From assembly GCA_902614945.1 (NCBI GenBank), contig CACMNE010000007.1, positions 1,235-65,234 of the forward strand: a stretch of 64,000 nucleotides of DNA. The letters run 5' to 3'. Positions 8,138 to 52,841 of the stretch are shown one piece after another (position 1 is the stretch's first letter; each line of letters begins with the position of its first letter). A program made the position numbers and the translations under genes. A model generated the notes under the pieces. That model was not told the DNA's origin. It was given only the letters and a program-made list of their open reading frames with translations, and did no database searches. Source of the stretch: an uncultured Alphaproteobacteria bacterium. Its GTDB lineage: Bacteria > Pseudomonadota > Alphaproteobacteria > Rhodobacterales > Rhodobacteraceae.

Positions 8138-8156
8138 ATTTGATCCTCCTTATAAA

Positions 8157-8525
8157 TTAATTATTTATCGATTCAAAAAAAATTGCAAGAGAAGCAATTT
8201 CTTCATTTGATAATCTTTGCGTAATCATTTCCATTATTGGATGGTTGCGTGCTCCACTCTTATATGAATGAAGGGCCCACACAAATGATTCTATAGGCCA
8301 TCCTGTAATTGAAGGAATACCTTCATCTAAACCTTGTGCATGATGGCATGTAGTGCATTCACTTGACAGATACTCTCCATAATCTATGTCACCAACAATG
8401 GCTAAAATTTCGTCAGAAACTTCAAATCCATCTTCATCATTGACTTGTTCGCTTGCCAATACATAAAAACCACAAAGATTTAAACATAGAGTTGAAATAG
8501 ATAATACTGATATTAAGCTTTTCAT
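8157..8525 (-). CDS. fccA: Monohaem c-type cytochrome, probable FccB partner subunit
   Basis: 122 aa with a Sec-type signal peptide and a single CxxCH site (CTTCHH). The gene sits 19 nt upstream of fccB on the same strand. The monohaem form resembles the small subunit of some flavocytochromes c or SoxE. Confidence 0.7.
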   Translation of the reverse strand: MKSLISVLSISTLCLNLCGFYVLASEQVNDEDGFEVSDEILAIVGDIDYGEYLSSECTTCHHAQGLDEGIPSITGWPIESFVWALHSYKSGARNHPIMEMITQRLSNEEIASLAIFFESINN

Positions 8526-12242: not shown

Positions 12243-13040
12243 TTAAATAACAGATTTACCACACCATTTTCCAATTGCTTTTTCTACTTTAAATCTTGCA
12301 TATAATTCCTCAGAGAACCAGTTACCTTCTCGAACTGATTTGATTGCTTTTGCGTGGGGACCGTCTTTTCTTGCGAAATTAGACATTGATTCTGCATTTG
12401 GCCAAATAGAAAAGGTTACTTGATGAAACCATGGAATTTCTCCTAATCCCATTTTAAAAAGCACATTGTTATCATTACCTATAACTTTTGAAATTGCGGG
12501 TACTCTAGACCAAAACTTGAGCATTATTTTTGGTTTTATAGTAGCTCTAGTTAATGCAGCCAACATTTTCTCTTCTGAGATTGTTTCTTTTTTTAATGGG
12601 TCGAATGGATTAATTTTATCCCAATATCCTTTGCTTGAAATTGGAGAAAGAAAAACATTCCAATTCTCAACTGATTTTGCTCTATATTTTTTATATATTT
12701 CTTTTTCTCTTATATTCTTTTCAGCAATGTTAATATCATTCCAAACGCTCAAGATAGCATAAACACTTGTATTAGGATAAGGCGTAAATCCCTCGCCAGT
12801 TCCTGAACCAAATAATTTATAAAAAGATATTTCTTTTATATTTTTCAACTTTTTACGCGCAAAACCCATTTGACCAAATGCCCATAATTTTTGGAAGATT
12901 CCTTTGAATCTAAAAAAACTTATAACTACAATTTGTGTATCTGTTTGCAAAGTTTTTTGACCAATTTCAAATTTTTTGTTTTCCATACTTTCAAGTACAA
13001 AGAAGCATTCATTTAATATGTTGTCAAATTTTTCTGACAT
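12243..13040 (-). CDS. crtA: Spheroidene monooxygenase
   Basis: 265 aa at the canonical position: upstream of bchI on the same strand and divergent from crtI. The family call rests on overall resemblance to CrtA plus synteny. Confidence 0.82.
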   Translation of the reverse strand: MSEKFDNILNECFFVLESMENKKFEIGQKTLQTDTQIVVISFFRFKGIFQKLWAFGQMGFARKKLKNIKEISFYKLFGSGTGEGFTPYPNTSVYAILSVWNDINIAEKNIREKEIYKKYRAKSVENWNVFLSPISSKGYWDKINPFDPLKKETISEEKMLAALTRATIKPKIMLKFWSRVPAISKVIGNDNNVLFKMGLGEIPWFHQVTFSIWPNAESMSNFARKDGPHAKAIKSVREGNWFSEELYARFKVEKAIGKWCGKSVI

Positions 13041-13073
13041 GATAAGTTTATAATATGTTAAAAAGATCTGACA
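13022..13073. promoter_or_regulatory. Two PpsR/CrtJ-type palindromes (TGT-N12-ACA) covering the crtA and crtI start codons
   Basis: TGTCAAATTTTTCTGACA (13022..13039) overlaps the crtA ATG. TGTTAAAAAGATCTGACA (13056..13073) overlaps the crtI ATG. The two start codons are 14 nt apart. Confidence 0.6.
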
Positions 13074-17143: not shown

Positions 17144-18612
17144 GCCATTGGGAGCCCTGCTCCTGGATGCGTTCCTCCTCCCACTAGAAGTAAACCCTGT
17201 ATTTTGTTTCTGTTCTTGGGTCTCATGAAAGTTGATGTTATTCCGTGAGGTGTTCTGCCATAAAGAGAGCCTTGAGAGCCAGGAAACATCAGGTTGAACT
17301 CTTCGGGTGTAGTAAGCATTTCTTCTGATGGTTTTAAATCTATTTTTAAACCCATTGATTCCAGAATAGAAAATGTTATTTCCTTGCATTTGGCATATTC
17401 CTTTTGTTTGTTATAATTTTTATTTAATGATACTGGAGATCCATTTATTATTATTTCAAAACGTCCCAAAACGTTTTCCTTAGGATAAGGGTCATTATTG
17501 TTTCCTTGTGCGCAAATATAAAGTGTTGGGTCTTTTGGAATTTCACCTTTTTTGATATCTTCAAATTCATTTTTATAATTTTTATTAAATAAAACATTAT
17601 GGTGACGAAGTTTTAATCCCTTTGTTTTAGCGGCAAAACTCCAAACATATGCTGATAGAGATCTATTCTGAACATTTTTAGTTGATACGGCCTTTTTCAC
17701 ATCTTTTCCTACAAGTCCATCTAAGAGTGCCTTTGGATCTCCATTAAATATTACTGTATTTGAATGAATAACTCTGCTATCATTTAGTTCTATTCCTGTA
17801 ATTTTATTATTTTTCACTAAGATTTTTTTAACCTTGCTTTTGTAAAAAAACTGGGTGTCAGATTTTCTTGCTACTGATTCAATTTCTTTTGCTAGATTAT
17901 ACATACCACCCTTTACCCTCCATACCCCTTGACATTCCACATTCCAAATTAGAGAAAGAATATTAGGAGACATAAATGGTGAACCGCCAACATAAGTAGA
18001 ATATCTAGAAAATAGTTGTTTTAAACGATAATCTGAAAAATTTTCACTAAGATAATTATATAAATTTTTATTTTTTATTAACAATTCTTTTAAAAGTTTC
18101 CAATAAACAAAACTATTTAAAAATAATGGAAATATTTTAGGTTTTGGACTCATTATTATTGGATCTTTAAAGAAATCAAAAAGACTTTCAGAAAACTTAT
18201 TGAATTTTTCAAATTCTAAAGCAGATTTATGGCCCGCAAATTTTTTTATTTCTTCAAAATTTTTTTCAAAAGACGAATATAAGTCCAGTGTACTCTGATC
18301 CCTCCACCAATGCCTTGCAATTATTTCTTCTTTAATGAAATCTAAATTTTCATTGATATCATGGCCACAAGAGTTAAATAAGTTTTCAAAAATGTTATAC
18401 ATAGTTAAAACAGTTGGGCCTGCATCAATAGGTCCTGCTTTGCTTTTAAGATACCTAATTTTTCCGCCTGGTTTTTCGTGTTGCTCATAAACTTCAACAC
18501 TTACCCCTGACGTGGAGAGTTTCATGGCTGCTGTCAATCCAGCAATACCGGCCCCAATAATTATAACTTTTTTATTTCTCAAAACTAATTTGCAATCTTT
18601 AAGTAATGTCAT
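17086..18612 (-). CDS. crtD: Methoxyneurosporene / hydroxyneurosporene desaturase
   Basis: CrtI-family FAD fold VIIIGAGIAGLTAAMKL and C-terminal LVGGGTHPGAGLPMA. The track start is TTG 18636; I prefer ATG 18612 (MTLLKDCK...). Confidence 0.92.
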   Translation of the reverse strand: MTLLKDCKLVLRNKKVIIIGAGIAGLTAAMKLSTSGVSVEVYEQHEKPGGKIRYLKSKAGPIDAGPTVLTMYNIFENLFNSCGHDINENLDFIKEEIIARHWWRDQSTLDLYSSFEKNFEEIKKFAGHKSALEFEKFNKFSESLFDFFKDPIIMSPKPKIFPLFLNSFVYWKLLKELLIKNKNLYNYLSENFSDYRLKQLFSRYSTYVGGSPFMSPNILSLIWNVECQGVWRVKGGMYNLAKEIESVARKSDTQFFYKSKVKKILVKNNKITGIELNDSRVIHSNTVIFNGDPKALLDGLVGKDVKKAVSTKNVQNRSLSAYVWSFAAKTKGLKLRHHNVLFNKNYKNEFEDIKKGEIPKDPTLYICAQGNNNDPYPKENVLGRFEIIINGSPVSLNKNYNKQKEYAKCKEITFSILESMGLKIDLKPSEEMLTTPEEFNLMFPGSQGSLYGRTPHGITSTFMRPKNRNKIQGLLLVGGGTHPGAGLPMACLSGRHAAEMILKDLSLI

Positions 18613-18648
18613 TAAATAATTACATATTATTGTCAAAAAAAATAGACA
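18607..18648. promoter_or_regulatory. Two tandem PpsR-type palindromes in the divergent crtD/crtE control region
   Basis: TGTCATTAAATAATTACA (18607..18624) overlaps the preferred crtD ATG. TGTCAAAAAAAATAGACA lies at 18631..18648. The gap between them is 6 bp. Confidence 0.6.
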
Positions 18649-20690: not shown

Positions 20691-20742
20691 GTTTATAGTG
20701 TAAATTTTAGTTGACACTATAAACTGTCAGTATAAAATTACA
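20691..20742. promoter_or_regulatory. bchC promoter region with two PpsR-type palindromes and a TTGACA-N16-TAAAAT sigma70-like promoter
   Basis: Site 1, TGTAAATTTTAGTTGACA (20699..20716), contains a perfect -35 TTGACA and is embedded in a perfect 11-bp-arm inverted repeat GTTTATAGTGT-N12-ACACTATAAAC (20691..20724). Site 2, TGTCAGTATAAAATTACA (20725..20742), covers the -10 TAAAAT (20733..20738). Confidence 0.7.
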
Positions 20743-20788: not shown

Positions 20789-21733
20789 TTGATTACTAAA
20801 GCTGTAGTGATGTCTGAGCCAGGTAGTTTGTCTATTCAACCTGTAGATTTAAAAAGCCCTTCAAAAGAAGATATTGTTATAGATATTAATTACTCTGGTA
20901 TCTCTACTGGTACTGAAAAACTATTTTACAACGGTAAGATGCCACAGTTTCCTGGCATGGGTTATCCTTTAGTTCCTGGATACGAATCAACAGGTGAAGT
21001 GGTACAGGCTCCTAAGGATTCAAATCTTAAAATCGGTGACATGGTTTTTGTACCTGGTGCTGATTGTTATTCAGGATCTGTAAAGAGTTTATTTGGAGGA
21101 GCAGCACAAATGATTATTTCTTCTCCCAATAGGCTTATAAAAATTGATCCAACTATGGGATGTAATGGTGCTTTATTCGCTCTTGCAGCTACCGCAAGAC
21201 ATGCAATTGCAGGTTTTGGAAATAAAATGCCAGATGTAATTGTAGGTCATGGAGTACTAGGTCGTTTGTTAGCCAGGCTCGTTATGCTTGCAGGTGAAAA
21301 GCCTCCAATAGTTTGGGAAAAAAATATTCTACGCCATTCAGGAGCAACAGATTATGAGGTTGTATTGCCTGAATATGATGAGCGTTCAGATTATGATTGT
21401 ATTTTTGATGTAAGTGGCGACTCTGAAATCTTAGATAGTTTAATTGGAAGAGTTCGAAAAGGTGGAGAGGTAGTTTTGGCTGGCTTTTATCCAGATAGAA
21501 TAGGGTTTGGGTTTGCCCAAGCTTTTCTTAAAGAAGTTTCACTTAGGGTCTCGGCAGAATTTACACCTGAAGATGTTGCAACAACAAAATTGCTAATAGA
21601 AGATGGTTCATTATCATTTGATGGACTAATTAGTGATGTTTATTCTGCTAAAAATGCAAACAAAGCCTACAATATCGCATTTAACAATGCTGAGTGTTTA
21701 AAAATGGTTTTAGATTGGAGAAATGCGGCATGA
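20789..21733 (+). CDS. bchC: Bacteriochlorophyllide a dehydrogenase
   Basis: Medium-chain dehydrogenase fold (GISTGTEKL, PLVPGYESTGEV). Begins the bchCXYZ block. TTG start 10 nt after GAGG; ATG 20810 is an alternative. Confidence 0.92.
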   Translation: MITKAVVMSEPGSLSIQPVDLKSPSKEDIVIDINYSGISTGTEKLFYNGKMPQFPGMGYPLVPGYESTGEVVQAPKDSNLKIGDMVFVPGADCYSGSVKSLFGGAAQMIISSPNRLIKIDPTMGCNGALFALAATARHAIAGFGNKMPDVIVGHGVLGRLLARLVMLAGEKPPIVWEKNILRHSGATDYEVVLPEYDERSDYDCIFDVSGDSEILDSLIGRVRKGGEVVLAGFYPDRIGFGFAQAFLKEVSLRVSAEFTPEDVATTKLLIEDGSLSFDGLISDVYSAKNANKAYNIAFNNAECLKMVLDWRNAA

Positions 21734-22755
21734 CTATAGAAACAATAAATGTCAAGGGGAATGCCAGTAAGGCTCTTGAGGACCACCATAATAGGTTAAA
21801 AAAAGAAGCCAAGGAACCAGTAGATGGTCTACATTTGAATGAACCTAAGAAAAAATGTCAAATAATTGCAATATACGGTAAAGGGGGGATTGGAAAATCT
21901 TTCACTTTAGCAAATTTGAGTTGTATGATGGCTGAGCAAGGTAAGCGAGTTCTGTTAATAGGCTGTGACCCTAAATCAGATACTACATCACTATTGTTTG
22001 AAGGTAAGGCATGTCCCACAATTATAGAGACTTCTACCAAAAAGAAACTTTCTGGCGAAGAGGTTGCTATTGGCGATGTTTGTTTCAAGAGAAATGGTGT
22101 TTTTGCTATGGAATTAGGTGGTCCAGAAGTAGGAAGAGGATGTGGAGGACGTGGCATAATTCATGGTTTTGAATTACTTGAAAAATTAGGTTTTCATGAC
22201 TGGGATTTTGATTACGTATTACTTGATTTCTTAGGAGATGTTGTTTGTGGAGGCTTTGGGTTACCAATAGCAAGGGATATGGCCCAAAAGGTAATTGTTG
22301 TTGGATCTAATGATTTACAGTCTTTATATGTTGCAAATAATGTTTGTTCGGCAGTTGAATATTTTCGAAAATTAGGTGGAAGCGTTGGAGTAGCTGGTAT
22401 TGTTATCAATAGGGATGACGGAACTGGAGAGGCGAAGAAATTTGCCGAAAAAGTTGGAATCCCAGTCCTTAGTACTATACCTGCAGATGATGACATAAGA
22501 AGGAAATCAGCAATGTATCAGATAATTGGGACAAAGCAAAGCCAGTGGGGAAATCTTTTTGAAACATTGGCTACAAATGTAGCAGGTGCTCCCCCTGTAA
22601 GACCCACTACTTTAAACCAAGACGAACTTTTGGGATTATTTGATGGTGGTCAAACAGGAGCTGGTTTTACGCTGGTACCAGCAACTGATGCAGATATGCG
22701 AGGAAAGTTTTCAAAGCCGAAGAAATCGTTGGAAGTTATATATGACAAGGTTTGA
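21730..22755 (+). CDS. bchX: Chlorophyllide a reductase iron protein subunit X
   Basis: NifH/BchL-like P-loop YGKGGIGKS with cluster cysteines in RGCGGRG and VVCGGF. The ATG overlaps the bchC TGA (ATGA). The track start at 21694 lies inside bchC. Confidence 0.95.
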   Translation: MTIETINVKGNASKALEDHHNRLKKEAKEPVDGLHLNEPKKKCQIIAIYGKGGIGKSFTLANLSCMMAEQGKRVLLIGCDPKSDTTSLLFEGKACPTIIETSTKKKLSGEEVAIGDVCFKRNGVFAMELGGPEVGRGCGGRGIIHGFELLEKLGFHDWDFDYVLLDFLGDVVCGGFGLPIARDMAQKVIVVGSNDLQSLYVANNVCSAVEYFRKLGGSVGVAGIVINRDDGTGEAKKFAEKVGIPVLSTIPADDDIRRKSAMYQIIGTKQSQWGNLFETLATNVAGAPPVRPTTLNQDELLGLFDGGQTGAGFTLVPATDADMRGKFSKPKKSLEVIYDKV

Positions 22756-22776
22756 TACTAAAAATAGGTTAAATAA

Positions 22777-24348
22777 ATGAGCACAGAGATCAAATATGAT
22801 CAAACGAATGAGGTCAAGTTGACAGAGGCTAATCAAGATCAAATGGAGAATTCACTGAGATCCTCTGAGCTTAAGTCATCTGGATGCCATTCAAAGCTTA
22901 ATAAAGAGAAATCAATAAAGTCTATAAATGGTAATAATAAGCTTTTAGATAAATTTAAAAAAGATTACCCGCTGGGGCCACATGATAAACCGCAAAGTAT
23001 GTGTCCTGCTTTTGGATCTTTAAGAGTTGGTCTTAGAATGAGAAGAGTTGCTACAATTTTATCTGGCTCTGCATGTTGTGTCTATGGATTAACATTTGTT
23101 TCTCACTTTTATGGTGCTAGAAGATCTGTTGGTTATGTTCCTTTTAGCTCAGAAACACTTGTGTCTGGGAAATTATTTGAAGATATTAGAGATTCTGTAC
23201 ATAAAACTGCTGATCCCTCAAAATATGACGCTATTATAGTTACAAATTTATGTGTCCCTACTGCATCAGGTGTACCATTAAGATTGCTTCCAAACGAAAT
23301 TAATGGTGTAAGAATTATTGGTATTGATGTTCCGGGTTTTGGAGTTCCAACTCACGCAGAGGCTAAAGATGTTCTTGCAGGTGCCATGCTTAATTATGCT
23401 AGAAAAGAAGCAGAGAAAGGCCCAGTATCAACACCGCTGTCAGGTAAATCTGATAGACCAACTGTAGCTTTGCTTGGGGAAATGTTTCCGGCCGATCCAA
23501 TAGGAATAAGTGGGATATTATCCCATTTAGGACTAACTACAGGGCCTGTGGTTCCTTGTCGTGAATGGAGAGAATTATATGGTGCCTTGGACTGCTCATT
23601 GGTTTCAGCTATTCATCCGTTTTATACTGCTTCAATCAGAGAATTTGAAGAGGCTGGTAGACCAATTTTAGGATCAGCTCCAGTTGGCAGTGAAGGAACT
23701 GAGGATTGGATTCAATCAGTGGGTGAAATTTTTAATATTAAAAAGGGTATAATCTCAAAATGTAAAAATGAAATTCTTCCAAAGATAAAAGAGAGTTTAA
23801 AATTACATAAGATTAAAGGAACAATAACGCTTTCTGGTTATGAGGGATCTGAGCTACTTGTTGCTCGTCTCTTAATAGAAAGTGGAGCAAAAATTCCTTA
23901 TGTTGGAACTGCGTGTCCAAAGACTAAATGGTCTGAAAAAGACAAAGAATGGTTAGAGTCAAAGGGAACAATGGTTAAATTCAGGGCGAGTTTGGAGGAT
24001 GATTGTGCTGCTGTTAAAGCAATCAAGCCATCTCTTGCAATTGGCACTACTCCTGTAGTCCAAAAAGGTAAAGAACTTGGGATTCCATCTTTATATTTCA
24101 CAAATTTAATTTCAGCTCGTCCTTTAATGGGTGTTGCTGGAGCCGGAAGCTTAGCACAAGTAGTGAATGCAGCCATGAAAAATAAAAAAAGAATGGCAGA
24201 TATGAAAAGCTTTTTTTCTGGAGTTGGTAGAGAAGATACATCAGGTATCTGGGAGAAAAGCCCGAATTTAAAACCTCAATTTCGAGAGCATAATTTAAAA
24301 AAGATAGAAAAAAGAAAAAAAGCTGAAAAAGCAGCGGAGATGATTTAA
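22777..24348 (+). CDS. bchY: Chlorophyllide a reductase subunit Y
   Basis: NifD/BchN-like, with the conserved block [24 protein letters not shown]. Confidence 0.95.
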
Positions 24349-25802
24349 TGCTAATTCAAGATCATGACAGAGCTGGTGGATATTGGGGATCTGTATATGC
24401 CTTTTGTGCAATCAAAGGTCTTCAAGTTGTAATTGATGGACCTGTTGGTTGTGAGAATTTACCAGTTACATCTGTCTTGCATTATACTGATGCATTACCA
24501 CCTCATGAATTACCAATAGTAGTAACTGGATTAGCAGAAGAAGAGTTAGGAAGAGAAGGTACCGAAGGTTCAATGAAGCGAGCATGGAAAACCTTAGATC
24601 CCGCGTTGCCTTCTGTAGTTGTCACTGGATCAATTGCAGAAATGATTGGTGGTGGAGTAACACCAGAGGGAACAACCATTCAAAGGTTTCTACCCCGTAC
24701 CATTGACGAAGATCAATGGCAGTCTGCTGATAGAGCCATGACATGGATATTTACTAACTTTGGACAAACAAAAGGTAGAATGCCTAGGGAAGCAAAAAGA
24801 GAAGAAGGAGCAAAACCAAGAGTAAACATTTTAGGGCCTATGTATGGAACATTTAATATGCCATCTGACTTAGCAGAGATAAGAAGATTAGTTGAAGGTA
24901 TAGGGGCAGAAATAAATATGGTTTTCCCCCTCGGTAGTCACTTGGCAGATGCCAATAAACTAGTTAATGCAGATGTAAATGTTGTCTTATATAGAGAGTT
25001 TGGTAGAGGTCTAGCTGAAATTCTTGATAAACCTTATCTTCAAGCCCCGATTGGAATAGACTCTACAACTAAATTTTTGCGCAAATTAGGAGAATTATTA
25101 AAGCTAGATCCTGAACCATTTATTGAACAAGAAAAACATTCTACAATAAAACCTGTTTGGGATTTATGGAGATCAGTTACTCAAGATTTTTTTGCAACTG
25201 CTAGCTTTGGAATTGTAGCTAATGAAACATATTCCCGTGGAATACGAAATTTTCTGGAAAATGATTTAGGCTTACCCTGTAGTTTTGCAATAGCAAGAAT
25301 TTCAGGAAAAAAAACAAATAATGACGAAGTAAGGTCATTGATAAGGGAAAAAAGACCTTTAGTATTAATGGGTTCCATTAATGAAAAAATGTACTTAGCA
25401 GAATTAAAGAAAGGATTTGGACCTAGTCCTTCCTTTATTCCTGCAAGCTTCCCTGGAGCTGCAATTAGAAGATCAACTGGGACTCCGATGATGGGTTTTG
25501 CTGGTGCTACCTATTTGTTGCAAGAGGTTTGTAATAGTCTCTTTGACTCTCTTTTTCATATTTTACCACTTGGTTCTGATATGGACGAAGTTGCTGCAAC
25601 ACCAACAAATTTAAAAAGAGATTTCCCATGGGATAAAGATGCTAAGGAATTTTTAGATAAGATTGTTCAAGAACATCCAGTAATCACAAGGATTTCAGCA
25701 GCAAAGAATCTTAGAGACGAAGCGGAAAGATCAGCATTAGCTGAAGGTAATGAAAGAGTTGTCTTGGAGACAGTTAAGAAAATTAGAGATAAAAGAATTT
25801 AA
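24348..25802 (+). CDS. bchZ: Chlorophyllide a reductase subunit Z
   Basis: NifK/BchB-like N-terminus ([36 protein letters not shown]). The ATG overlaps the bchY TAA by 1 nt. Confidence 0.95.
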
Positions 25803-25828: not shown

Positions 25829-26065
25829 ATGAAGCAGTCAACAGTTAAAGAGTTTTGTGTTTCAGATTACAGAAGGACAATTAAGTTGGAGTACAGAATT
25901 TATTTTGCTCTAATTTTTTTGATTTCTATACCTTTAGCTACTTTCACATGGTTAACTTATTTAATTATGAACATTTTTAATTCTAAAGCAAAAACAAATG
26001 AGGGTATTTTTAGAAGGGCATGGGGACATGCACAAGTGATAACCCCAATGATATTTACCGCATGA
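25829..26065 (+). CDS. pufQ: PufQ
   Basis: 78 aa with one central TM helix. LEYRIYFALIFLISIPLA and the C-terminal FRRAWGHAQVITPMIFTA parallel Rhodobacter PufQ as I recall it. Located between bchZ and pufB. Confidence 0.85.
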   Translation: MKQSTVKEFCVSDYRRTIKLEYRIYFALIFLISIPLATFTWLTYLIMNIFNSKAKTNEGIFRRAWGHAQVITPMIFTA

Positions 26066-26185
26066 GAGCGGTTTACGAAATTCGGTGGCACTCTAGCTAC
26101 CGGATAGTTCTGAGCCATGAGGGTTCAGAAATGTCAACCCTGCGAGCAATCGTGGGATCAGTCGAAACAATCCGGAGGATTAAAC
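26066..26185 (+). promoter_or_regulatory. GC-rich structured pufB 5' leader (pufQ-pufB intercistronic RNA)
   Basis: Visibly more GC-rich than all other intergenic DNA in the window. Candidate hairpins are CGGTGGC-ACTCTA-GCTACCG (26083..26102) and two mutually exclusive stems, CTGAGCC-ATGAG-GGTTCAG (26110..26128) and AGGGTT-N10-AACCCT (26120..26141). SD GGAGGA at 26174..26179. Confidence 0.55.
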
Positions 26186-26344
26186 ATGGCTGGAAATAAC
26201 GACCTGTCATTATCAGGTTTAACAGAGGATCAAGCACAGGAACTTCATAGTGTTTATATGAGCGGTCTTTGGACATTCACACTTATGTGTGTACTGGCTC
26301 ATATTGCAACATGGATTTGGCGTCCTTGGTTCTATTTCAGTTAA
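26186..26344 (+). CDS. pufB: Light-harvesting 1 beta polypeptide
   Basis: 52 aa, [49 protein letters not shown]..., with the BChl-ligand His in AHI. ATG 26186 follows GGAGGA. The track start at 26117 is an unsupported in-frame extension. Confidence 0.93.
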
Positions 26345-26355
26345 AGGAGAATTAA

Positions 26356-26526
26356 ATGAGTCAATTTTACAAAATATGGCTGATTTTTGACCCACGTAGA
26401 GTGTTCGTGGCTCAAGGCGTATTTCTCTTTTTATTAGCAGCGTTAATACATTTAGTGTTGCTAAGCACAGAACACTTCAATTGGTTTGAGGCAGCAGCAA
26501 CTGCTTCTAAGGCCGCTGGTGGCTAA
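26356..26526 (+). CDS. pufA: Light-harvesting 1 alpha polypeptide
   Basis: 56-aa ORF not in the ORF track because it falls below the length cut-off. It reads [64 protein letters not shown] lies 7 nt upstream. The sequence is nearly canonical Rhodobacter/Roseobacter-type PufA. Confidence 0.93.
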
Positions 26527-26540
26527 ACCAATTTAAAGTG

Positions 26541-26579
26541 GCCGTGGGCGGGCTCCCCCCCAAACAACCCGCCTACGGC
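26541..26579 (+). terminator. pufA-pufL intercistronic stem-loop (partial terminator / mRNA-stability element)
   Basis: GCCGTGGGCGGG (26541..26552) pairs with CCCGCCTACGGC (26568..26579), giving 12 bp with one G-U pair and a 15-nt C-rich loop, with no U-tract. The position matches the known Rhodobacter puf intercistronic hairpin. Confidence 0.75.
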
Positions 26580-26641: not shown

Positions 26642-27532
26642 ATGGCATTACTCAGTTTTGAGAGAAAGTATCGTGTTCCCGGAGGCACCCTAATCGGAAG
26701 AGACTTATTCGATTTTTGGGTTGGGCCTTTTTATATTGGCTTTTTTGGTTTAATGACCATATTTTTTGCCTCATTAGGTACATTGCTTATCTTATGGGGA
26801 GCCGCATTACAGGGAACTTGGAATCCTTTCCTTATAAGTATAAATCCACCAGCATTGGAGTATGGTTTACAATTTGCTCCACTCAGAGATGGAGGATTAT
26901 GGCAAATAATTACTATTTGTGCACATGGTGCATTTATAGCTTGGTTATTAAGAGAAGTAGAAATTTGTAGAAAGTTAGGTATTGGTTATCACGTACCTTT
27001 TGCTTTTGGTGTAGCTATTTTTGCATATACTTCATTGGTTGTAATAAGACCTGTGTTAATGGGTGCATGGGGTCATGCATTTCCTTACGGAATATTTTCA
27101 CACTTAGATTGGGTATCTTATACAGGATATGCGTATATTAATTTTCATTTTAATCCAGCACATTGGGTTGCAATTACTTTTTTCTTTACAACCACTTTAG
27201 CGCTAGCATTACATGGTGGATTAGTATTATCAGCTGCAAATCCAGAGAGTGGAAAAGAATCAAAATCTCCAGATCACGAAGATACTTATTTTAGGGATTT
27301 TATTGGTTATTCAATTGGAACTATAGGTATTCACAGAATAGGATTACTTCTCGCATTAAATGCAGGATTTTGGTCTGCAGTGTGTATATTGATTTCTGGG
27401 CCAGCGTGGATATTCCCTGAGGGATCTAGTTGGGTTGAATGGTGGAATTGGTGGCCTAGATTAACCACTTTTTCTGAAGCACAATATCAAGAAACAATGA
27501 CTTTTATAAACAGTCTAGAATGGACGCAGTAG
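26642..27532 (+). CDS. pufL: Photosynthetic reaction centre L subunit
   Basis: [19 protein letters not shown]..., five TM helices, [28 protein letters not shown] and the C-terminal WWNWW block. SD AGGAGG upstream. Confidence 0.97.
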
Positions 27533-27539
27533 GAGGTTT

Positions 27540-28505
27540 ATGATGGCTGAATATCAAAATATTTTTACACAAGTCCAAGTGAAAGGTCCTCCCGAGATGG
27601 GAATGGACGAGACTGGAAATCTATCAAGTGAAAGAACTAAATCAACAAGAAATAATACCTGGTTAGGTTATATTGGAAATGCTCAGCTTGGCCCAATCCA
27701 TTTGGGAATGTTTGGAGTAGTATCAATATATTTATTCTTTGTATGGTTTTTTCTTGTTGGATTTGCGATGCTACAACAAGTAAACTTTGATTTTGCTCTT
27801 TTCATAAGAACATTATTTTGGTTATCTCTTAATCCACCACCTGAGAAGTATGGATTATCATTTCCTCCCATTAATGATGGTGGGTTATACATGATTGCCA
27901 GTTTTTGTCTACTGTTCTCAGTTTTGAGCTGGTGGGTAAGGTCTTATTTGAGAGCTAATGAATTAGGAATGGGCAAGCATATTTGTTGGGCATTTGCAGC
28001 AGCGATATGGTTGTTTCTTGTAATTGGACTTTTTCGACCAATTGCCATGGGTTCATGGTCAGAAATGGTTCCTTATGGAATTTTTCCTCACTTGATTTGG
28101 ACTAATAATTTGTCTGTAGCTTGGGGAAATCTTTTTTATAATCCGTTTCATGCTTTATGTATTGTTTTTCTTTATGGTTCAGCTCTTTTATTTGCTATGC
28201 ATGGTGCCACAATATTAGCAACATCCAGACTTGGTGGAGATCGTGAATTAGAACAAATTTATGATAGAGGAACAGCTTCAGAAAGGGCTGCTCTATTTTG
28301 GAGATGGACGATGGGTTTTAATGCATCAATGGAAGGTATTCATCGGTGGGCTTGGTGGTTTGCTGTACTAGTACCTATAACAGGTGGAATAGGAATTCTA
28401 CTAACAGGTACAGTAGTAGATGATTGGAGATACTGGGCTGTAGAGCATGGTTTTGCAACTGAAATAGAATATTCAGTACCAGAATCCACATTATTAGGAG
28501 AATAA
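27540..28505 (+). CDS. pufM: Photosynthetic reaction centre M subunit
   Basis: [20 protein letters not shown]..., [18 protein letters not shown] and [11 protein letters not shown]. Confidence 0.97.
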
Positions 28506-28507
28506 TT

Positions 28508-29263
28508 ATGGAACCATTTTTTTCAAATTTTGATATTGCACAATTAAGTCTTTACCTCTTTTGGGCATTTTTCATTGGTTTAGTTATTTATCTCCAAAAA
28601 GAAAATATGAGAGAGGGATATCCTTTGGAAAATGAGCAATCTAATACTGCTTATAATCAGGGGATGTATCCCTTACCTTCCCCCAAAACTTTCAAGCTTA
28701 TGCATGGGCGAGGGGAAGTGAACGTACCAAATGATAAAGGCGAAACAAGAAAACTAAAGCTAGAAATAAAGAATGTTGCAAATGGTTCTCCTCTTTATCC
28801 GACAGGTGATCCTATGGATGATGGATTGGGTGCAGCTGCTTGGGCTGAAAGAAGAGATGTTCCTGAGCTAGATGGTCATGGAAATCCTAAAATAAGGCCT
28901 ATGAGTAGCTTGAAAGGGTATGAAGTTTCGGCTGGTAAAGATCCAAGAGGTATGGATGTTATTTCTGCTGACAAAGTGACAGTTGGTAAAGTCACAGATA
29001 TGTGGATTGATGTACCGGAACAATTTGTCAGATATCTAGAACTTGAGTTAAAAGATGGAACAAAAAGACTACTACCAATGCCTTTGTCTAAAATCAATAG
29101 TAAGTCCGTTGATGTTCATTCATTATATGGTAAGCACTTTAAAAAAGTCCCAACTATAAAAAAATCAAAAGAAATTACTATGTTAGAGGAAGAAAAAGTA
29201 AGTGCTTATTATACAGGTGGTAAATTATATGCATCCTATGACAGGTTAGTATCACCAGTATAA
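28508..29263 (+). CDS. puhA: Photosynthetic reaction centre H subunit
   Basis: N-terminal TM helix followed by [16 protein letters not shown], then [36 protein letters not shown] and [16 protein letters not shown]. The ATG lies 2 nt after the pufM stop, with an SD inside the pufM 3' end. Confidence 0.95.
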
Positions 29264-29271
29264 ATTTATAA

Positions 29272-29306
29272 AAATAGCAGGAGAGATCTTTTCACTCCTG
29301 CTATTT
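29272..29306 (+). terminator. Stem-loop at the 3' end of the puf-puhA transcription unit
   Basis: AAATAGCAGGAG (29272..29283) pairs perfectly with CTCCTGCTATTT (29295..29306), giving 12 bp and an 11-nt loop. It begins 9 nt after the puhA stop. No clear trailing U-tract, so it may attenuate or stabilise rather than fully terminate before dxs. Confidence 0.6.
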
Positions 29307-29321
29307 ACTAAAGGGGGACAA

Positions 29322-31244
29322 ATGTCAAAACAAGCTATATTGGATAGAGTTAATTTTCCAAGTGATCTTAGAAATTTAACTGATGACGATCTTAATCACT
29401 TGGCTAATGAATTAAGACAAGAAACTATTTCAATTGTTTCTAAAACGGGTGGTCATCTAGGTTCTAGTCTTGGTGTTATAGAATTAACTATAGCGATACA
29501 TTCGGTATTTAACACTCCTTTCGATAAATTGATTTGGGATGTTAGTCATCAGTGTTATCCTCATAAAATTCTCACGGGTAGAAGAAAGGGCATGATGACA
29601 TTGAGACAAGATAAAGGCTTGTCGGGTTTTACTAAGAGAACTGAAAGTGAATACGACCCGTTTGGTGCAGCACATTCTTCAACATCAATTTCTGCAGCTT
29701 TAGGTTTCACTGTAGCTCGTGACCTAGGTTCTAGTGTAGGGGATTCAATTGCGGTAATTGGTGATGGATCAATAAGTGCTGGTATGGCTTATGAAGGTTT
29801 AAATAACGCAGGATCAGAAGGCAGGAGGTTATTTGTAATTTTAAATGATAATGAAATGTCTATAGCTCCCCCAGCAGGTGCAATGTCAAAGTATTTGTCC
29901 AGTTTATATGCTAATAATGAATTCTACAGTCTTACACAGTTAGCAGAAGGTTTAGCAAAAAATCTGCCTGGTCCATTACAAGAAGGTGCAAGACGTGCGA
30001 AAAGTATAATCACAGGCCTTGCTGCTGGTGGTACATTTTTTGAAGAATTAGGTTTTTCATACCTAGGTCCAATAGATGGTCATGATTTAAACCAATTATT
30101 ACCTGTGTTAAGAGCAGTTAAGGCAAGAGCAAAAGGCCCCATTTTAATACATTGTGTAACAAAAAAAGGAAAGGGTTATTATCCAGCAGAAAACTCTGCT
30201 GATAAATATCATGGGGTATCAAAATTTGATATTAGTTCCGGGGAGCAAAGTAAATCAAAACCTAATGCTCCTTCTTATACCTCTGTATTTGGAAAAGCCT
30301 TAGTAAGTGAAGCTTCTAGAGATCATCGTATTGTTGCTGTTACCGCTGCTATGCCATCTGGTACTGGAGTTAACCTTATGCAGAAAGAATATCCCCAAAG
30401 AACCTTTGACGTTGGTATTGCTGAACAACATGCGGTTACTTTTGCAGGAGGTATGGCGGCTGGTGGATTAAAGCCTTTTTGTGCAATTTATTCTACTTTT
30501 TTACAACGCGGATATGATCAAATTGTACATGATATAGCATTGCAAAATTTACCAGTGAGATTTGCAATAGATAGGGCAGGTCTAGTTGGTGCGGATGGAG
30601 CCACACATGCTGGTTCATATGATATAGCATATTTATCAAATTTACCTGGTTTCGTGGTTATGGCAGCGGCTGATGAACTTGATTTAATGAATATGGTTGC
30701 AACTGCAGCATCTTATAACGATGGTCCTATTGCATTTAGATATCCAAGAGGTGAAGGAGTAGGTATCGAATTACCTGAGAAAGGTACCCCTCTTGAAATA
30801 GGAAAAGGTCGAATGATAAAAGAAGGTAAAAGTGGCGTTGCTATTCTAAATTTTGGCGCACATTTATTGGAAGTTAAAGAGGCTGCCGAAATGTTATTAC
30901 AATCAGGAGTTGATATAACAATAGCAGATGCTAGATTTGCAAAACCACTAGATAAAAAACTAATTACTAATTTAGCGAAAAATCATTCAGCTTTGATATC
31001 AATAGAGGAAGGGGCTATTGGTGGTTTTGGTTCGCATGTATCCAATTTGCTAAGTGAGTCAGGACTCTTGGATGGAAAATTAAAATTTAGATCAATGTTT
31101 ATGTGTGATAAATTTATTGATCAAGGCAAACCTGAAAATATGTATAAAGAAGCTGGCTTAGGTGTGCAGGATATAGTAGATAAAGTGATGAGTTTGATGG
31201 GTGTTTCAGTAGTTAAATTCAAAAAAAATGATTTGTCAGCTTAA
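29322..31244 (+). CDS. dxs: 1-deoxy-D-xylulose-5-phosphate synthase
   Basis: 640 aa with the ThDP motif [18 protein letters not shown]...NDN and a transketolase-like C-terminus. Occupies the position downstream of the puf operon, as Rhodobacter dxsA does. Confidence 0.96.
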
Positions 31245-36646: not shown

Positions 36647-37435
36647 TTAATTTATTTTTTTATACTTTAAACTCAGTTGTTTTAAAATCTCTTCAAGATT
36701 TTGTGTAATAAAATCAACCTTTAATTTATCGTTTGTTTGTTTATAGGTGTTTACAAGATTACCACCTAAAACGATTGGAGTTTTTCTCTCTACAATAGCA
36801 GATATTTTAGAAGATAAATTATTAATTTTTTCAATCATGAAATTATTAGCTGATGATATACCAATGAAATCGTAATTTCTTTCAAATAGTAAATTTTCCA
36901 ATTCATTTTTATTGAAGTCAAAAATTAAAAATGTGTCTATACCCATTCCACGTAGTTTCCTGGTTGCAGCAATACCACCGTAAGTATGATCTTCTCCCTT
37001 AGGTATTATAATTAAGGTCTTAGTTTTGTAGTATGCTGAATTAAGGAAGGAAATATATAGTGGTTCAAATTTTGAATTCAAAAACTGAATTTTACCTAAA
37101 GCTATTGTTACATTAGAAAACGAAATTTCATCTGCGACCCAGTCATCGCCTAATCTTTTGGCAATTGTTGGTAAATAAGAATCTAAGATAAGTTCTATCG
37201 AACGACCACATTTAATCAATTTATCAATTAATTTCTCGTTAATTTTTAAAGATTTTGATTTGATTGAAAAATAAAGATTATCTATATCATTATCAAAGTT
37301 AAGAGTACTAATCGGTTTACTTTTTTCTATTAATTTTTCTAAAGTCTCCAATACGAGTGGGTTTACAGTCGAAATGTTATCCACTCTTTTTAAACCTTTT
37401 GAGGAGCTCATTGCTTTATACCTTAATTTATGCAT
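36647..37435 (-). CDS. ppaA: PpaA/AerR cobalamin-binding antirepressor
   Basis: 262 aa with a C-terminal B12-binding-type Rossmann domain carrying a His-containing loop (IIPKGEDHTYGG). Canonical position upstream of ppsR and divergent from bchF. An alternative ATG at 37411 follows AAGG. Confidence 0.8.
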   Translation of the reverse strand: MHKLRYKAMSSSKGLKRVDNISTVNPLVLETLEKLIEKSKPISTLNFDNDIDNLYFSIKSKSLKINEKLIDKLIKCGRSIELILDSYLPTIAKRLGDDWVADEISFSNVTIALGKIQFLNSKFEPLYISFLNSAYYKTKTLIIIPKGEDHTYGGIAATRKLRGMGIDTFLIFDFNKNELENLLFERNYDFIGISSANNFMIEKINNLSSKISAIVERKTPIVLGGNLVNTYKQTNDKLKVDFITQNLEEILKQLSLKYKKIN

Positions 37436-37587: not shown

Positions 37588-37605
37588 TGTCAAAGATTAT
37601 TGACA
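37588..37605. promoter_or_regulatory. PpsR-type palindrome overlapping a candidate ppaA promoter
   Basis: TGTCAAAGATTATTGACA. On the minus strand its TTGACA (37593..37588) is followed after 17 nt by CATAAT (37570..37565). Confidence 0.55.
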
Positions 37606-37755
37606 CTTTTACTTTTTTTGAAATTTATGTATTATATTTTCTCCTCCTTTTTAAGTGTGCTCAACAAATTAACCAATAAATATTGTATATTTTTTTATTT
37701 TATTGAGTGTAATTAAATAAATAATTACAATAAATTTTAAAAAAAATAAAATAAG

Positions 37756-37773
37756 TGTAAATTTTAGTTGACA
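37756..37773. promoter_or_regulatory. PpsR-type palindrome over the bchF -35 region
   Basis: TGTAAATTTTAGTTGACA. It lies inside a 22-nt stretch (37754..37775) identical to 20697..20718 in the bchC promoter, and it contains a perfect TTGACA. A weak -10 (TACTCT) follows after 16 nt. Confidence 0.65.
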
Positions 37774-45628: not shown

Positions 45629-46318
45629 ATGAGAACTTATTCTCAAAATAGAGATAGAATAGCCGAATACTTCGATAAAACAGGTTTTCGAGCATGGGAA
45701 GCTTTGACAACTGAAACACCTGTATCAAAAATTAGATTAAAAGTTAGAGCAAGTAGAGAGAAGATGAGAAGTAAAATGTTATTACATTTACCAAAGGATC
45801 TCTCTGGAAAAAGAATTTTAGATGCCGGATGTGGTGCTGGCCAATTTTCTATTGAGTTAGCTCTAAGGGGAGCTAATGTTTTAGGTATAGATATTTCATC
45901 GAATCTAATTGAAATAGCTAAAAAAAGATTGCCTAAAAATCTTAAAGAAAATGCTGAATTTATTACATCCGATATGATGCAAAATCATGGAAGTTTTGAC
46001 TACGCTATATTGATGGATAGTTTAATTCATTATCCTGAAAAAGATACTGTTAATATTTTAGAAAACTTACTGAGAAACACTAATGAAAAAATATTATTTA
46101 CCTTAGTTCCTTCAAATTTTATTCTAACATTAAAACTGATGATAGGCCGTCTTTTCCCAAAATCAGATCGTTCTCCTACTTTATCACCATTAAATACCAA
46201 ATCTTTTATTGAAATATATAAAGATAAATTTGAGAGAGAATATAATGCTACTATTTCCAGGATTAGTAAAGTCAATGATCTTTTTTATACATCTGAGTTT
46301 CTAGAATTGAGAAAATGA
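45629..46318 (+). CDS. bchM: Mg-protoporphyrin IX methyltransferase
   Basis: SAM motif ILDAGCGAGQFS. 229 aa, between bchL and lhaA. Confidence 0.93.
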   Translation: MRTYSQNRDRIAEYFDKTGFRAWEALTTETPVSKIRLKVRASREKMRSKMLLHLPKDLSGKRILDAGCGAGQFSIELALRGANVLGIDISSNLIEIAKKRLPKNLKENAEFITSDMMQNHGSFDYAILMDSLIHYPEKDTVNILENLLRNTNEKILFTLVPSNFILTLKLMIGRLFPKSDRSPTLSPLNTKSFIEIYKDKFEREYNATISRISKVNDLFYTSEFLELRK

Positions 46319-47748
46319 TTATTTCTAAAGAACATATATTCAAAATAAGTAAAAATATTTTACCTTTTTCGGATGCTGGAAGTACAAACTTCTCTTTGTT
46401 TCAACTTTTGAGATTATCTCTTTTTCAAATATCTGTAGGAATGGCTACAGTTATGTTAGCAGGTACATTAAATAGAGTAATGATTGTAGAGCTTTTAGTT
46501 CCAGCATCACTAGTGGCTATAATGATTGCAATACCAGTTTTAATTGCGCCACTTAGAACTTTCTATGGCCATAAATCAGACACTTATAAGTCTTTCATTG
46601 GATGGAAAAGAATACCTTATATGTGGTTTGGTAGCTTGTTCCAGTTTGGAGGTCTTGCGATAATGCCTTTTGCCATAATTATACTTTCTGGTGATCAAAC
46701 TGTGGGTCCAAGTTGGGCAGGAGAAGTTTTGGTTGCAATTGCTTTCTTATTTACTGGAATTGGAATGCATATTACTCAAACGGTTGGATTAGCTTTAGCA
46801 GCCGATAGAGCAACAAAAGAAAATCGACCAAGAGTGGTAGCTTTACTTTATTTTATGTTTCTATTTGGAATGGGAATTTCAGCTGTAGTAATTGGTATTT
46901 TATTAGCAGATTTTTCTAAGTTACGTTTAATACAGGTAGTTCAAGGATCCGCAGTACTTACATTAATTCTTAATCTTGTAGCGGTTTGGCGACAGGAACA
47001 AATAATTATTAATCAACAGAAAAATGACAAATCTGAAAAGTTTTTTTTATCATGGAAAAAATTTATTTCTGATCGAAAAACAAAGAGTTTAATTTGGGTT
47101 GTTTTCTGGGGAACTTTGGCTTTTTCAATGCAAGATGTGTTATTGGAACCATATGGTGGTCAAATTTTAGGATTAAGTGTTTCTGAAACAACAAATCTTA
47201 CAGGAGTATGGGCTTTGGGTGCACTTCTTGGTTTGGCACTGGCTGCCAATAATTCAAAAAAGACAATTTCTTCTGTAAGTAATGCAATGACAGCGCTTCT
47301 CATAGGTATAGTAGGTTTCTCTGCCATAATATTTTCAAGCCCTATGCAATTTCCTTTTTTATATTTTCTTGGAACATTATTTATTGGATTTGGAACAGGC
47401 TTATTTTCAGTTTCACTACTAATAATTGCAATGGCATTGTCATCAAAAACTAATTTAGGCAGTGGTTTTATTTTAGGTTCTTGGGGTGCAGCTCAAGCCT
47501 TAGGAGCTGGATTGGGTATAGCTGTGGGTGGAATATTACGTGATGTAGTTAATAAAATCGCGCTCTCTGGTTATTTAGGGTCAACTTTTGAAAACAATTC
47601 GATAGGTTATATTTTTGTATACCACTTGGAAATTTTATTCATTTTTATAACTTTGATTGTCCTTGGGATGCTTTCACAAGAAATAAATAAAGGGAAAATT
47701 AAAGATCATGACCAAAAAAGCTTTGGATTGACTGAAATACCATCATAA
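46315..47748 (+). CDS. lhaA: LH1 assembly factor LhaA (PucC family)
   Basis: 477 aa with about 12 TM helices. ATGA overlap with bchM. Canonical position after bchM. Confidence 0.9.
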   Translation: MIISKEHIFKISKNILPFSDAGSTNFSLFQLLRLSLFQISVGMATVMLAGTLNRVMIVELLVPASLVAIMIAIPVLIAPLRTFYGHKSDTYKSFIGWKRIPYMWFGSLFQFGGLAIMPFAIIILSGDQTVGPSWAGEVLVAIAFLFTGIGMHITQTVGLALAADRATKENRPRVVALLYFMFLFGMGISAVVIGILLADFSKLRLIQVVQGSAVLTLILNLVAVWRQEQIIINQQKNDKSEKFFLSWKKFISDRKTKSLIWVVFWGTLAFSMQDVLLEPYGGQILGLSVSETTNLTGVWALGALLGLALAANNSKKTISSVSNAMTALLIGIVGFSAIIFSSPMQFPFLYFLGTLFIGFGTGLFSVSLLIIAMALSSKTNLGSGFILGSWGAAQALGAGLGIAVGGILRDVVNKIALSGYLGSTFENNSIGYIFVYHLEILFIFITLIVLGMLSQEINKGKIKDHDQKSFGLTEIPS

Positions 47749-47760
47749 TAGGGAAAAAGA

Positions 47761-48405
47761 ATGTATAAGATAAATAATACACCACCAAAAGACATATTAA
47801 GTGTTATTCCTAAAGATGAGGAGATAATTTGGCATGGTAGGCCAGATTTGAGAAGATTTTGTTTAACTGCAATAGGAATAAAGTATATTCTGGTTTATCT
47901 AATTATAATTACCTGTTCTATAATTTACACAAGGTATGGTGATTTCAATTTAATTACTATTTTACAGGTGCTTGTCCCTTATTTATTGAGTTGTTGTTTA
48001 GCTATTATACTACTAGTCATTGTTGGAATTTCACAAGTTTTACCAACAGTTTATGTAATTACAAGTAAGCGAGTAATTATTAAAAGTGGCTTGGCACTAA
48101 TTTTTATGCTTAATGTTCCATTTGATAAGATTGCTAGTATTGACAAAAATCATTATAGTGATGGATCTGGAAATATTTCATTTAAACTTATTAGCAATAA
48201 AAGAGTTCCTTTTTTTGCAAGCTGGCCAAGTGTAAGGCCTTGGTACTTCAGTAATCCTGAGCCAACATTCAGATGTATTGCTGATGTAGATGTTATAGCT
48301 TTAAAATTATCGGAGGCAGCTCAATCTAGAGTTTCTGAAGTAAATTTAAAAAAGATAAATGATATTAAAAACGTTAAAATGCAAGATGGGGGGATAACTG
48401 CATGA
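47761..48405 (+). CDS. puhB: RC assembly protein PuhB
   Basis: 214 aa with two or three TM segments and a PH-like (YdbS-type) domain. Assigned by synteny after lhaA, where puhA would normally intervene. Confidence 0.8.
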   Translation: MYKINNTPPKDILSVIPKDEEIIWHGRPDLRRFCLTAIGIKYILVYLIIITCSIIYTRYGDFNLITILQVLVPYLLSCCLAIILLVIVGISQVLPTVYVITSKRVIIKSGLALIFMLNVPFDKIASIDKNHYSDGSGNISFKLISNKRVPFFASWPSVRPWYFSNPEPTFRCIADVDVIALKLSEAAQSRVSEVNLKKINDIKNVKMQDGGITA

Positions 48406-48851
48406 GAGAAAACACTGGGACACATGAAAAAGAAGTAATTCCTATACGATTAGTACAAGCAGTTGGAGCATTACTTTTAGTCACATTATTAATGGTTGGA
48501 TATGCAAGACTGTCTGATATGCCACTTATTGGAACTCCTAAACAAGTTCCAGTGGTTTCTGAAACTTCCTTAGAATTTATTAAGCAGAAAAATGGATCTG
48601 TTTCTATATTTAACAAAAATGGTCAGGAAATTATTAATTCAAGGGCTGGTCCATATGGTTTTATAGTAGTAGTATATAATGGTTTTATGTCAGAAAGGAA
48701 AAAGAAAGAAATTGATATTAACAATCCACTAAAACTTATTCAATATGAAGACGGTAGACTTACAATTGTTGATGAATCTTCTTCTTGGGATATGCATCTA
48801 AATAGTTTTGGGTCTATGAATACAGCTGTATTTAAGGAATTAATAAAATAA
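48402..48851 (+). CDS. puhC: RC assembly protein PuhC
   Basis: 149 aa with a single N-terminal TM anchor (AVGALLLVTLLMVGY) plus a soluble domain. ATGA overlap with puhB. Confidence 0.8.
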   Translation: MRENTGTHEKEVIPIRLVQAVGALLLVTLLMVGYARLSDMPLIGTPKQVPVVSETSLEFIKQKNGSVSIFNKNGQEIINSRAGPYGFIVVVYNGFMSERKKKEIDINNPLKLIQYEDGRLTIVDESSSWDMHLNSFGSMNTAVFKELIK

Positions 48852-52397: not shown

Positions 52398-52841
52398 ATG
52401 AGAAAGCTTTTTTTAATTATTACTACAATAATTTTTACTTTTACTTTTAATTCTGTTTTTGCTGCTGAAATTGAAGTTAAAATGCTTAATAAAGATGCGG
52501 ACGGTAATAAAATGATATTTGAGCCAATGCTAATAATGGCAGAAAAGGGAGATACGGTTACTTTTTTACCCACGGAGAAAGGACATATGGCAGCGAGTAT
52601 TAAAGGTATGTTACCAAAAGGTATTAAAAAGTTTAAAGGTAAAATCAATAAACCAGTAAGTATCGTGGTTTCAGAAGATGGCCTTTATGGTGTGAAATGT
52701 ACACCACATTTAGCAAATGGAATGGTAGCACTTATAGCTGTTGGTGATGTTAATACAGATGGTTTCTTAGACGGAGTTAAATTACCAAAGAAATCAAAAG
52801 CTAGAATGGAAGAAATGCTCGCTCAATTAGCAGCAAAGTAA
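52398..52841 (+). CDS. Pseudoazurin (type 1 blue copper protein), periplasmic
   Basis: Signal peptide ending SVFA-AE. EIEVKMLNKDADGNKMIFEP..GDTVTFLPTEKGH..YGVKCTPHLANGMVALIAVG matches the pseudoazurin pattern, with His, Cys, His and Met copper ligands. Confidence 0.9.
   Translation: MRKLFLIITTIIFTFTFNSVFAAEIEVKMLNKDADGNKMIFEPMLIMAEKGDTVTFLPTEKGHMAASIKGMLPKGIKKFKGKINKPVSIVVSEDGLYGVKCTPHLANGMVALIAVGDVNTDGFLDGVKLPKKSKARMEEMLAQLAAK

Follow-up and report, generated by a model that had tools for sequence, protein, structure and literature searches.

A clade of uncultured low-GC ocean phototrophs with the reaction center gene puhA behind pufM instead of lhaA

Why does a gene for the H subunit of the photosynthetic reaction center (RC) lie directly behind pufM in a 64-kb stretch of DNA, hereafter the window, when described relatives keep the two genes apart? 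In 44 of 44 Rhodobacteraceae clusters, pufM is followed by pufC or pufX, and puhA follows lhaA (Brinkmann 2018, PMC6052148). The order bchFNBHLM-lhaA-puhABC was conserved in all clusters analyzed by Zheng 2011 (PMC3176799), and puhA was likewise located apart from pufLM by Imhoff 2019. A 2025 survey of 653 Roseobacter genomes distinguished pufLMX, pufLMC, and pufLM-only operon types; its main text has no word that starts with "puh" (PMC12661815), and a search of its supplements for genome names and gene terms gave no hits.

The window (~33% G+C) contains a complete Rhodobacter-type photosynthesis gene cluster that extends from bchO (8564) to hemA (52318). Its order is bchO-D-I(-), crtA(-), crtI, crtB, tspO, crtC(-), crtD(-), crtE, crtF, bchC, X, Y, Z, pufQ, B, A, L, M, puhA, dxs, idi(-), bchP(-), pucC(-), bchG(-), ppsR(-), ppaA(-), bchF, N, B, H, L, M, lhaA, puhB, puhC, orf102, acsF, puhE, and hemA, in which crtA is named by position alone, its ORF having no Pfam match. 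The arrangement pufQ-B-A-L-M directly after bchCXYZ is that of a Rhodobacteraceae puf operon. All of these genes are on the plus strand: bchC, bchX, bchY, and bchZ (20789-25802; ORFs with Pfam matches) are directly 5' of pufQ (25829-26065; PF05398, 65 bits), which is followed by pufB for LH1 beta (26186-26344; PF00556, with 100% tblastn identity to clade members), pufA for LH1 alpha (26356-26526; PF00556, 56 bits), pufL (26642-27532; PF00124, 306 bits), and pufM (27540-28505; TIGR01115, 488 bits). The likely start of pufB is an internal ATG at 26186, just after a GGAGGA, and the fold of the leader before it agrees with this assignment. Beyond puhA lies dxs (29322-31244, +; PF13292, PF02779, and PF02780), positioned as in pufX- and pufC-type clusters. 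Rfam and tRNA scans of the 64 kb returned no matches.

The open reading frame behind pufM, at 28508-29263 (+), encodes 251 amino acids and was taken for the H subunit in an earlier note on this DNA, a reading borne out by profile and structure comparisons. The translation matches the puhA equivalog TIGR01150 over its full length (residues 3-246; 327 bits against a cut-off of 200) and has the expected pair of domains, PRCH (PF03967; residues 4-133, 174 bits) and PRC-barrel (PF05239; residues 141-203, 42 bits). It contains a hydrophobic stretch of 17 residues, with a membrane-spanning helix in the N-terminal PRCH region, as well as both protein motifs quoted in the earlier note. Alignments to the H chains of solved RCs in the PDB span the whole protein (residues 3-247), with E values of 3e-95 for 9wqv_H and 3e-86 for the H chain of R. 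sphaeroides. Positions 28508-29263 encode a full-length RC-H, which is predicted to assemble with L and M into an active RC.

The site at which puhA would ordinarily be found is empty. The end of lhaA (46315-47748, +; PF03209, 443 bits) and the start of puhB at 47761 are separated by a 12-nt spacer (47749-47760, +) with no puhA in it, and six independent assemblies show the same. The exact PuhB of the window occurs in 574 blocks of the assembly collection, on contigs of up to 1.13 Mb, and always as lhaA-12 nt-puhB. Apart from puhA, the order bchF-N-B-H-L-M-lhaA ... puhB-puhC-orf-acsF-puhE-hemA is intact; puhB and puhC (47761-48851, +; NF040894, 145 bits, and TIGR03054, 118 bits) stayed within the bchFNBHLM-lhaA unit, and no remnant of the 3' part of lhaA was seen beside puhA at its new locus. 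The earlier note had placed puhA in the slot that pufC or pufX fills in described Rhodobacteraceae (Brinkmann 2018, PMC6052148), away from its textbook place after lhaA, and had reported a stem-loop and dxs downstream. All of this holds: the gene after pufM is puhA, rather than pufC or pufX, and it is succeeded by a hairpin at 29272-29306 (+) and then dxs.

Synteny alignment and a database search, both proposed previously for this locus, reveal that pufM-puhA adjacency recurs in one clade and is absent from more distant relatives. Scanning a single representative genome for each GTDB species gave 58 loci. All eight of those with a PuhA 80 to 100% identical to that of the window read bchZ-pufQBALM-puhA-dxs-idi(-); they come from SAGs of the AG-* series, MAG LRMED-261, and MAG NAT102, and their locus G+C contents range from 0.34 to 0.41. 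The 50 other Rhodobacterales loci encode a PuhA that is at most 61% identical, and 49 of the 50 have the order bchM-lhaA-puhA-puhB; the remaining contig begins at puhA, such that the upstream gene is off the contig, and has puhB downstream. Metagenomic contigs divide in the same manner, with pufM-puhA-dxs on each of the 13 whose PuhA is at least 79% identical and the canonical lhaA-puhA-puhB on each of the 11 whose PuhA is 67% identical or less. Within the assembly collection, 63 blocks contain the exact PuhA of the window, and the gene order is repeated in another six assemblies that carry this PuhA. The arrangement pufM-puhA-dxs is confirmed as a real, conserved, lineage-specific variant of a well-known gene cluster. 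Two older studies, by Yutin & Beja in 2005 and by Yutin et al. in 2007, in which pufM phylogroups were reportedly defined partly by operon structure on GOS scaffolds, lay outside the scope of the literature searched, and no description of a pufM-puhA layout was found within it.

The direction of the change is apparent from the closest relatives that lack the linkage. The nearest PufM proteins outside of the clade (77 to 79% identical; 326 to 328 amino acids; related contigs L059-L061) come from contigs on which the order is pufL-pufM-(72-78 nt)-dxs-idi(-) and pufC, pufX, and puhA are all lacking. Two sister contigs include both the old and the new sites of puhA. MDTG01070275.1 (GC 0.31) reads pufL-pufM-74 nt-dxs ... 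bchFNBHLM-lhaA-puhA-puhB-puhC-orf-acsF-puhE-hemA-cupredoxin, and SUNY21-1 scaffold_6554 (GC 0.43) reads pufQBALM-53 nt-dxs ... lhaA-puhA-puhB. Both are otherwise collinear with the window, save that MDTG01070275.1 is without ppaA, and neither has pufC or pufX. Unlike the window, these lineages retain puhA at its ancestral position and have a hairpin-containing spacer of 53 to 74 nt between pufM and dxs; their identities to the window are ~67% for PuhA and 72 to 75% for Dxs. Because both sites are present on each of these contigs, the canonical position of puhA is ancestral and the slot after pufM was already empty, so that puhA did not displace pufX or pufC. The two contigs point to the translocation of a single gene over ~18 kb.

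In a neighbor-joining tree of 38 PuhA sequences, the pufM-linked set groups with the canonical PuhA of L068-L070 (75% identical) in 200 of 200 bootstraps, and the monophyly of the pufM-linked proteins with respect to L068-L070 is recovered in 83 of 200. A single origin of the linkage is likely, being the simplest reading of these data. The PufM proteins of the sister lineages end in ...GN, like the M subunits of pufC-type operons, which hints at an older loss of pufC.

The junction itself is compact. The pufM stop codon (TAA, 28503-28505) is separated from the puhA ATG at 28508 by the two nucleotides TT (28506-28507), and a Shine-Dalgarno sequence, AGGAGA (28496-28501, +), lies in the last codons of pufM, 6 nt before the ATG, exactly as the earlier note had read it from the sequence. 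Across all 22 clade junctions, the gap is 2, 5, or 6 nt, and the GGAG core is retained in every one (22/22) within the last two pufM codons, which specify GE or GD in the sub-lineage of the window versus KE or QE in the sub-lineage of ~80% identity. No hairpin is detected at the junction, where the predicted fold is no better than that of shuffled sequences (z = -1.3), and there is no terminator-like site in the gap, the sole match between pufL and puhA being inside the pufM coding sequence.

Two hairpins bracket the RC genes. The hairpin after puhA (-19 kcal/mol; z = -3.2), a likely end or stabilizer of the puf transcript, is present in 21 of 21 clade spacers just 5' of the dxs ribosome-binding site. 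Its stem sequence differs between sub-lineages, and within the sub-lineage of the window alone, 5 of its 13 pairs show compensatory changes. Most members of the ~80%-identity sub-lineage have a run of 7 or 8 T residues after the stem; the window's own sub-lineage has just a weak U tail, making read-through from puhA into dxs likely there. Sister lineages have a hairpin at the matching position, between pufM and dxs, indicating that puhA was inserted 5' of a preexisting 3' hairpin of the operon.

The other hairpin, between pufA and pufL (26541-26579, +), has a stable 12-bp stem composed almost purely of G+C, which is striking in a genome of 33% G+C, and was found in each of the 12 clade sequences inspected; L003, L006, and L007 have changes that are paired. 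We take it to be the counterpart of the intercistronic decay terminator of R. capsulatus, which makes pufBA mRNA outlast pufLM. The conserved short gap, the embedded GGAG, the lack of a hairpin at the junction, and the presence of hairpins after puhA and between pufA and pufL together favor cotranscription and coupling of pufM and puhA. On these grounds, puhA is probably cotranscribed with pufL and pufM, such that all three RC subunits would be made from one mRNA, and all evidence that can be computed favors translational coupling of puhA to pufM. As a separate matter, the pufQ-pufB leader (26066-26185) folds at -45 kcal/mol (z = -3.3 versus shuffled sequences), as expected of a structure that stabilizes the 5' end of pufBA mRNA.

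The account that we regard as probable is that puhA moved as a single gene into the puf operon, with the result that production of H is matched to that of L and M. The move would have taken place in the ancestor of a single low-GC pelagic Rhodobacterales clade, which includes NAT102: puhA alone would have left the lhaA-puhB interval and settled after pufM, ahead of the hairpin 5' of dxs, pufC and pufX being already gone. It would now be the terminal cistron, the sixth, of pufQBALM-puhA; the puf promoter, the bchC promoter, or both would drive its transcription together with that of pufL and pufM, and its translation would be coupled to pufM termination by way of the Shine-Dalgarno sequence in the last pufM codons; the transcript would end, or be protected, at the hairpin after puhA. 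Situated 3' of the pufA-pufL hairpin, puhA would lie on the same rapidly decaying stretch of mRNA as pufL and pufM, with pufBA persisting longer, and H synthesis would keep step with that of L and M instead of issuing from the bchF-lhaA unit as in Rhodobacter. Functional consequences of the move, including any effect on subunit stoichiometry, are plausible.

Pairs of TGT-N12-ACA palindromes occur in the promoter regions of crtA/crtI (13022-13073), crtD/crtE (18607-18648), bchC (20699-20742), and bchF (37588-37773), and no such PpsR-type pair is found in the window in the vicinity of pufM/puhA or of the last part of lhaA. The total of 19 TGT-N12-ACA matches in the window is not above chance (15 +/- 4), and it is their pairing and intergenic placement that stand out. 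The pair upstream of bchC (+; PpsR/CrtJ type) overlaps a promoter-like TTGACA-16-TAAAAT site and could be where a bchCXYZ-pufQBALM-puhA superoperon begins. The old and new positions of puhA are both in superoperons with PpsR-type sites, and the regulatory consequence may be small. In one alternative, the move is real but functionally neutral, a change of position within overlapping superoperons that left H expression and RC assembly essentially as before. We consider this unlikely. It draws on the shared type of palindrome pair upstream of bchC and bchF and on the variation in photosynthesis gene cluster order between lineages (Zheng 2011, PMC3176799), but the 2- to 6-nt junction and its GGAG have been kept across ~20% protein divergence and a range in GC from 0.34 to 0.43, and the lhaA-puhA linkage is invariant in every relative outside the clade whose upstream gene is visible. 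Both forms of conservation argue that the position of puhA matters.

A second alternative places puhA outside of the puf transcript, under a promoter of its own in the 3' part of pufM. There is precedent in R. capsulatus, where a secondary puhA promoter lies inside the preceding gene (lhaA in Rhodobacter). A scan with a sigma-70-like consensus, which captures alphaproteobacterial photosynthesis promoters poorly and leaves this idea some room, found no promoter-like site on the plus strand between 27700 and 28507. Moreover, a 2-nt gap with a Shine-Dalgarno sequence inside pufM is typical of a coupled cistron, and since no terminator separates pufM from puhA, such a promoter would add to read-through from pufM without replacing it. 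An independent puhA transcript of this kind is improbable.

That the pufM-linked gene is an extra paralogue, with a canonical copy elsewhere in the genome, is highly improbable: the view of the genome is confined to 64 kb, but no puhA occupies the canonical slot of the window or of the six independent assemblies, homology searches yield one PuhA lineage for the clade, and the pufM-linked protein is itself a full-length, conserved H subunit. A chimeric puf-puh join produced by assembly or binning is almost certainly not the explanation, for although chimeric public sequences exist in this group (contig L067 and protein P0010), the same join appears in SAGs, MAGs, and short-read metagenomes of independent projects, the sequences that span it have diverged, and the empty slot is seen on contigs of up to 1.13 Mb.

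One of these sequences would, if genuine, have represented an intermediate. Contig L067 (1-1808) has the order pufM-puhA-puhB, but was rejected as a chimera or, at best, an unconfirmed recombinant. Its nucleotide identity to the pufM-puhA-dxs contig L080 is 97 to 100% up to approximately nt 1260 and then falls abruptly to ~60% inside puhA, just past a conserved 14-residue region, and no other contig in the metagenome scan shows the order pufM-puhA-puhB. Protein P0010 is also a chimera, consisting mostly of a near-exact P0095, but with a C-terminal tail that from ...AVLVPITGG on is identical to the PufM of the window.

With puhA in the slot after pufM, the cluster appears to have neither PufC nor PufX. 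A tblastn search of the 64-kb window with PufC and two PufX sequences gave a best E value of 0.36, a weak negative given that PufX is poorly conserved, and the only unassigned intergenic space in the cluster, the ppaA/bchF promoter region, holds no plausible ORF. The previous claim that the core complex lacks both PufX and a tetraheme subunit stands within the 64 kb; for the genome as a whole, we infer as much, an extension strengthened by the absence of pufC and pufX from the clusters of the sister lineages.

A pseudoazurin gene (52398-52841, +; TIGR02375, 141 bits; signal peptide present) follows hemA by 79 nt, where the cluster ends. A copper-protein gene also follows hemA in six other assemblies of the same species, in sister contig L064, and in L015, and is absent from ~45 other Rhodobacterales loci; in MDTG01070275.1, too, a pseudoazurin gene occupies this place. 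As there is no pufC in the cluster, this copper protein could serve as an electron donor to the RC, a role that might spare iron. A broader proposal would unite a minimal RC-LH1 core without tetraheme subunit or PufX, a single unstable mRNA segment for the three RC subunits, and re-reduction of the RC by pseudoazurin rather than by a c-type cytochrome. That full combination seems doubtful; if true, it would amount to a streamlined, iron-sparing photosystem whose assembly is independent of premade H.

The cluster shares with the pufQBALMX-dxs arrangement of Rhodobacter capsulatus and R. sphaeroides the order bchCXYZ-pufQ-B-A-L-M, the pufA-pufL hairpin, and a 3' hairpin followed by dxs, and it is collinear with the Rhodobacter cluster in the crt genes, idi-bchP-pucC-bchG-ppsR-ppaA, bchFNBHLM-lhaA, puhB, puhC, acsF, puhE, and hemA. 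It differs in having puhA where Rhodobacter has pufX, no pufX-like ORF, and no puhA after lhaA. With the pufQBALMC clusters of Roseobacter and Dinoroseobacter it has in common the cluster architecture and a PufM extended at its C terminus beyond the 308 amino acids of the pufX type, but the extension is shorter and of different sequence, pufC is missing, and puhA is in its slot. Cultured AAPs among the Sphingomonadales, as well as Loktanella vestfoldensis SKA53, also have a puf operon in which pufM is last, neither a cytochrome subunit nor PufX being encoded after it (Zheng 2011); unlike the window, they keep bchFNBHLM-lhaA-puhABC, leaving H unlinked from L and M.

The lengths and C termini of PufM proteins follow operon type. 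PufM is 308 amino acids long in pufX types; longer proteins, presumed to be of the pufC type with their operon context assumed, have 321 to 326 amino acids and end in ...YGYExYxGGN. Those of the pufM-dxs sister group have 326 to 328 amino acids and end in ...YSVPECSAVCERLTSGN, and those of the puhA-linked clade have 321 and a C-terminal ending of their own (compared with P0003, P0031, and P0014).

Related to "Ca. Luxescamonaceae," this clade of uncultured, low-GC phototrophs from the ocean breaks the lhaA-puhABC rule, and does so without constituting a new kind of system. Its practical impact is modest, the proteins being ordinary and no new protein or chemistry being involved. The clade and its rule-keeping sister lineages nevertheless provide a naturally matched pair in which to address two long-standing questions: whether the separate expression of H matters for RC assembly, as in the "H first" model derived from work on Rhodobacter, and how the L:M:H stoichiometry is set. 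The group in which the three RC genes form one tightly packed unit is composed of widely recovered ocean phototrophs. The clade member NAT102 was among the founding MAGs of "Ca. Luxescamonaceae" (PMC6018677), and this family has been equated with pufM phylogroups C and D; in samples from the open ocean, C2 is reported to outnumber all other AAP groups (PMC13219746, PMC13219738). Operon typing by pufLMC, pufLMX, or pufLM alone (PMC12661815) would miss the linkage to puhA.

Two further features of the window concern its gene content. The regulatory gene ppaA/aerR lies between ppsR and bchF in the window (36647-37435) and in the SUNY21-1 sister contig, and is absent from MDTG01070275.1 (L101 7779-9530; GC 0.31). 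Beside the bchO end of the cluster, at 6875-8525 (-), are genes for a flavocytochrome-c sulfide dehydrogenase flavoprotein and a 122-amino-acid monoheme cytochrome c with a CTTCH motif, which fit the sulfur-oxidation potential reported for "Ca. Luxescamonaceae."
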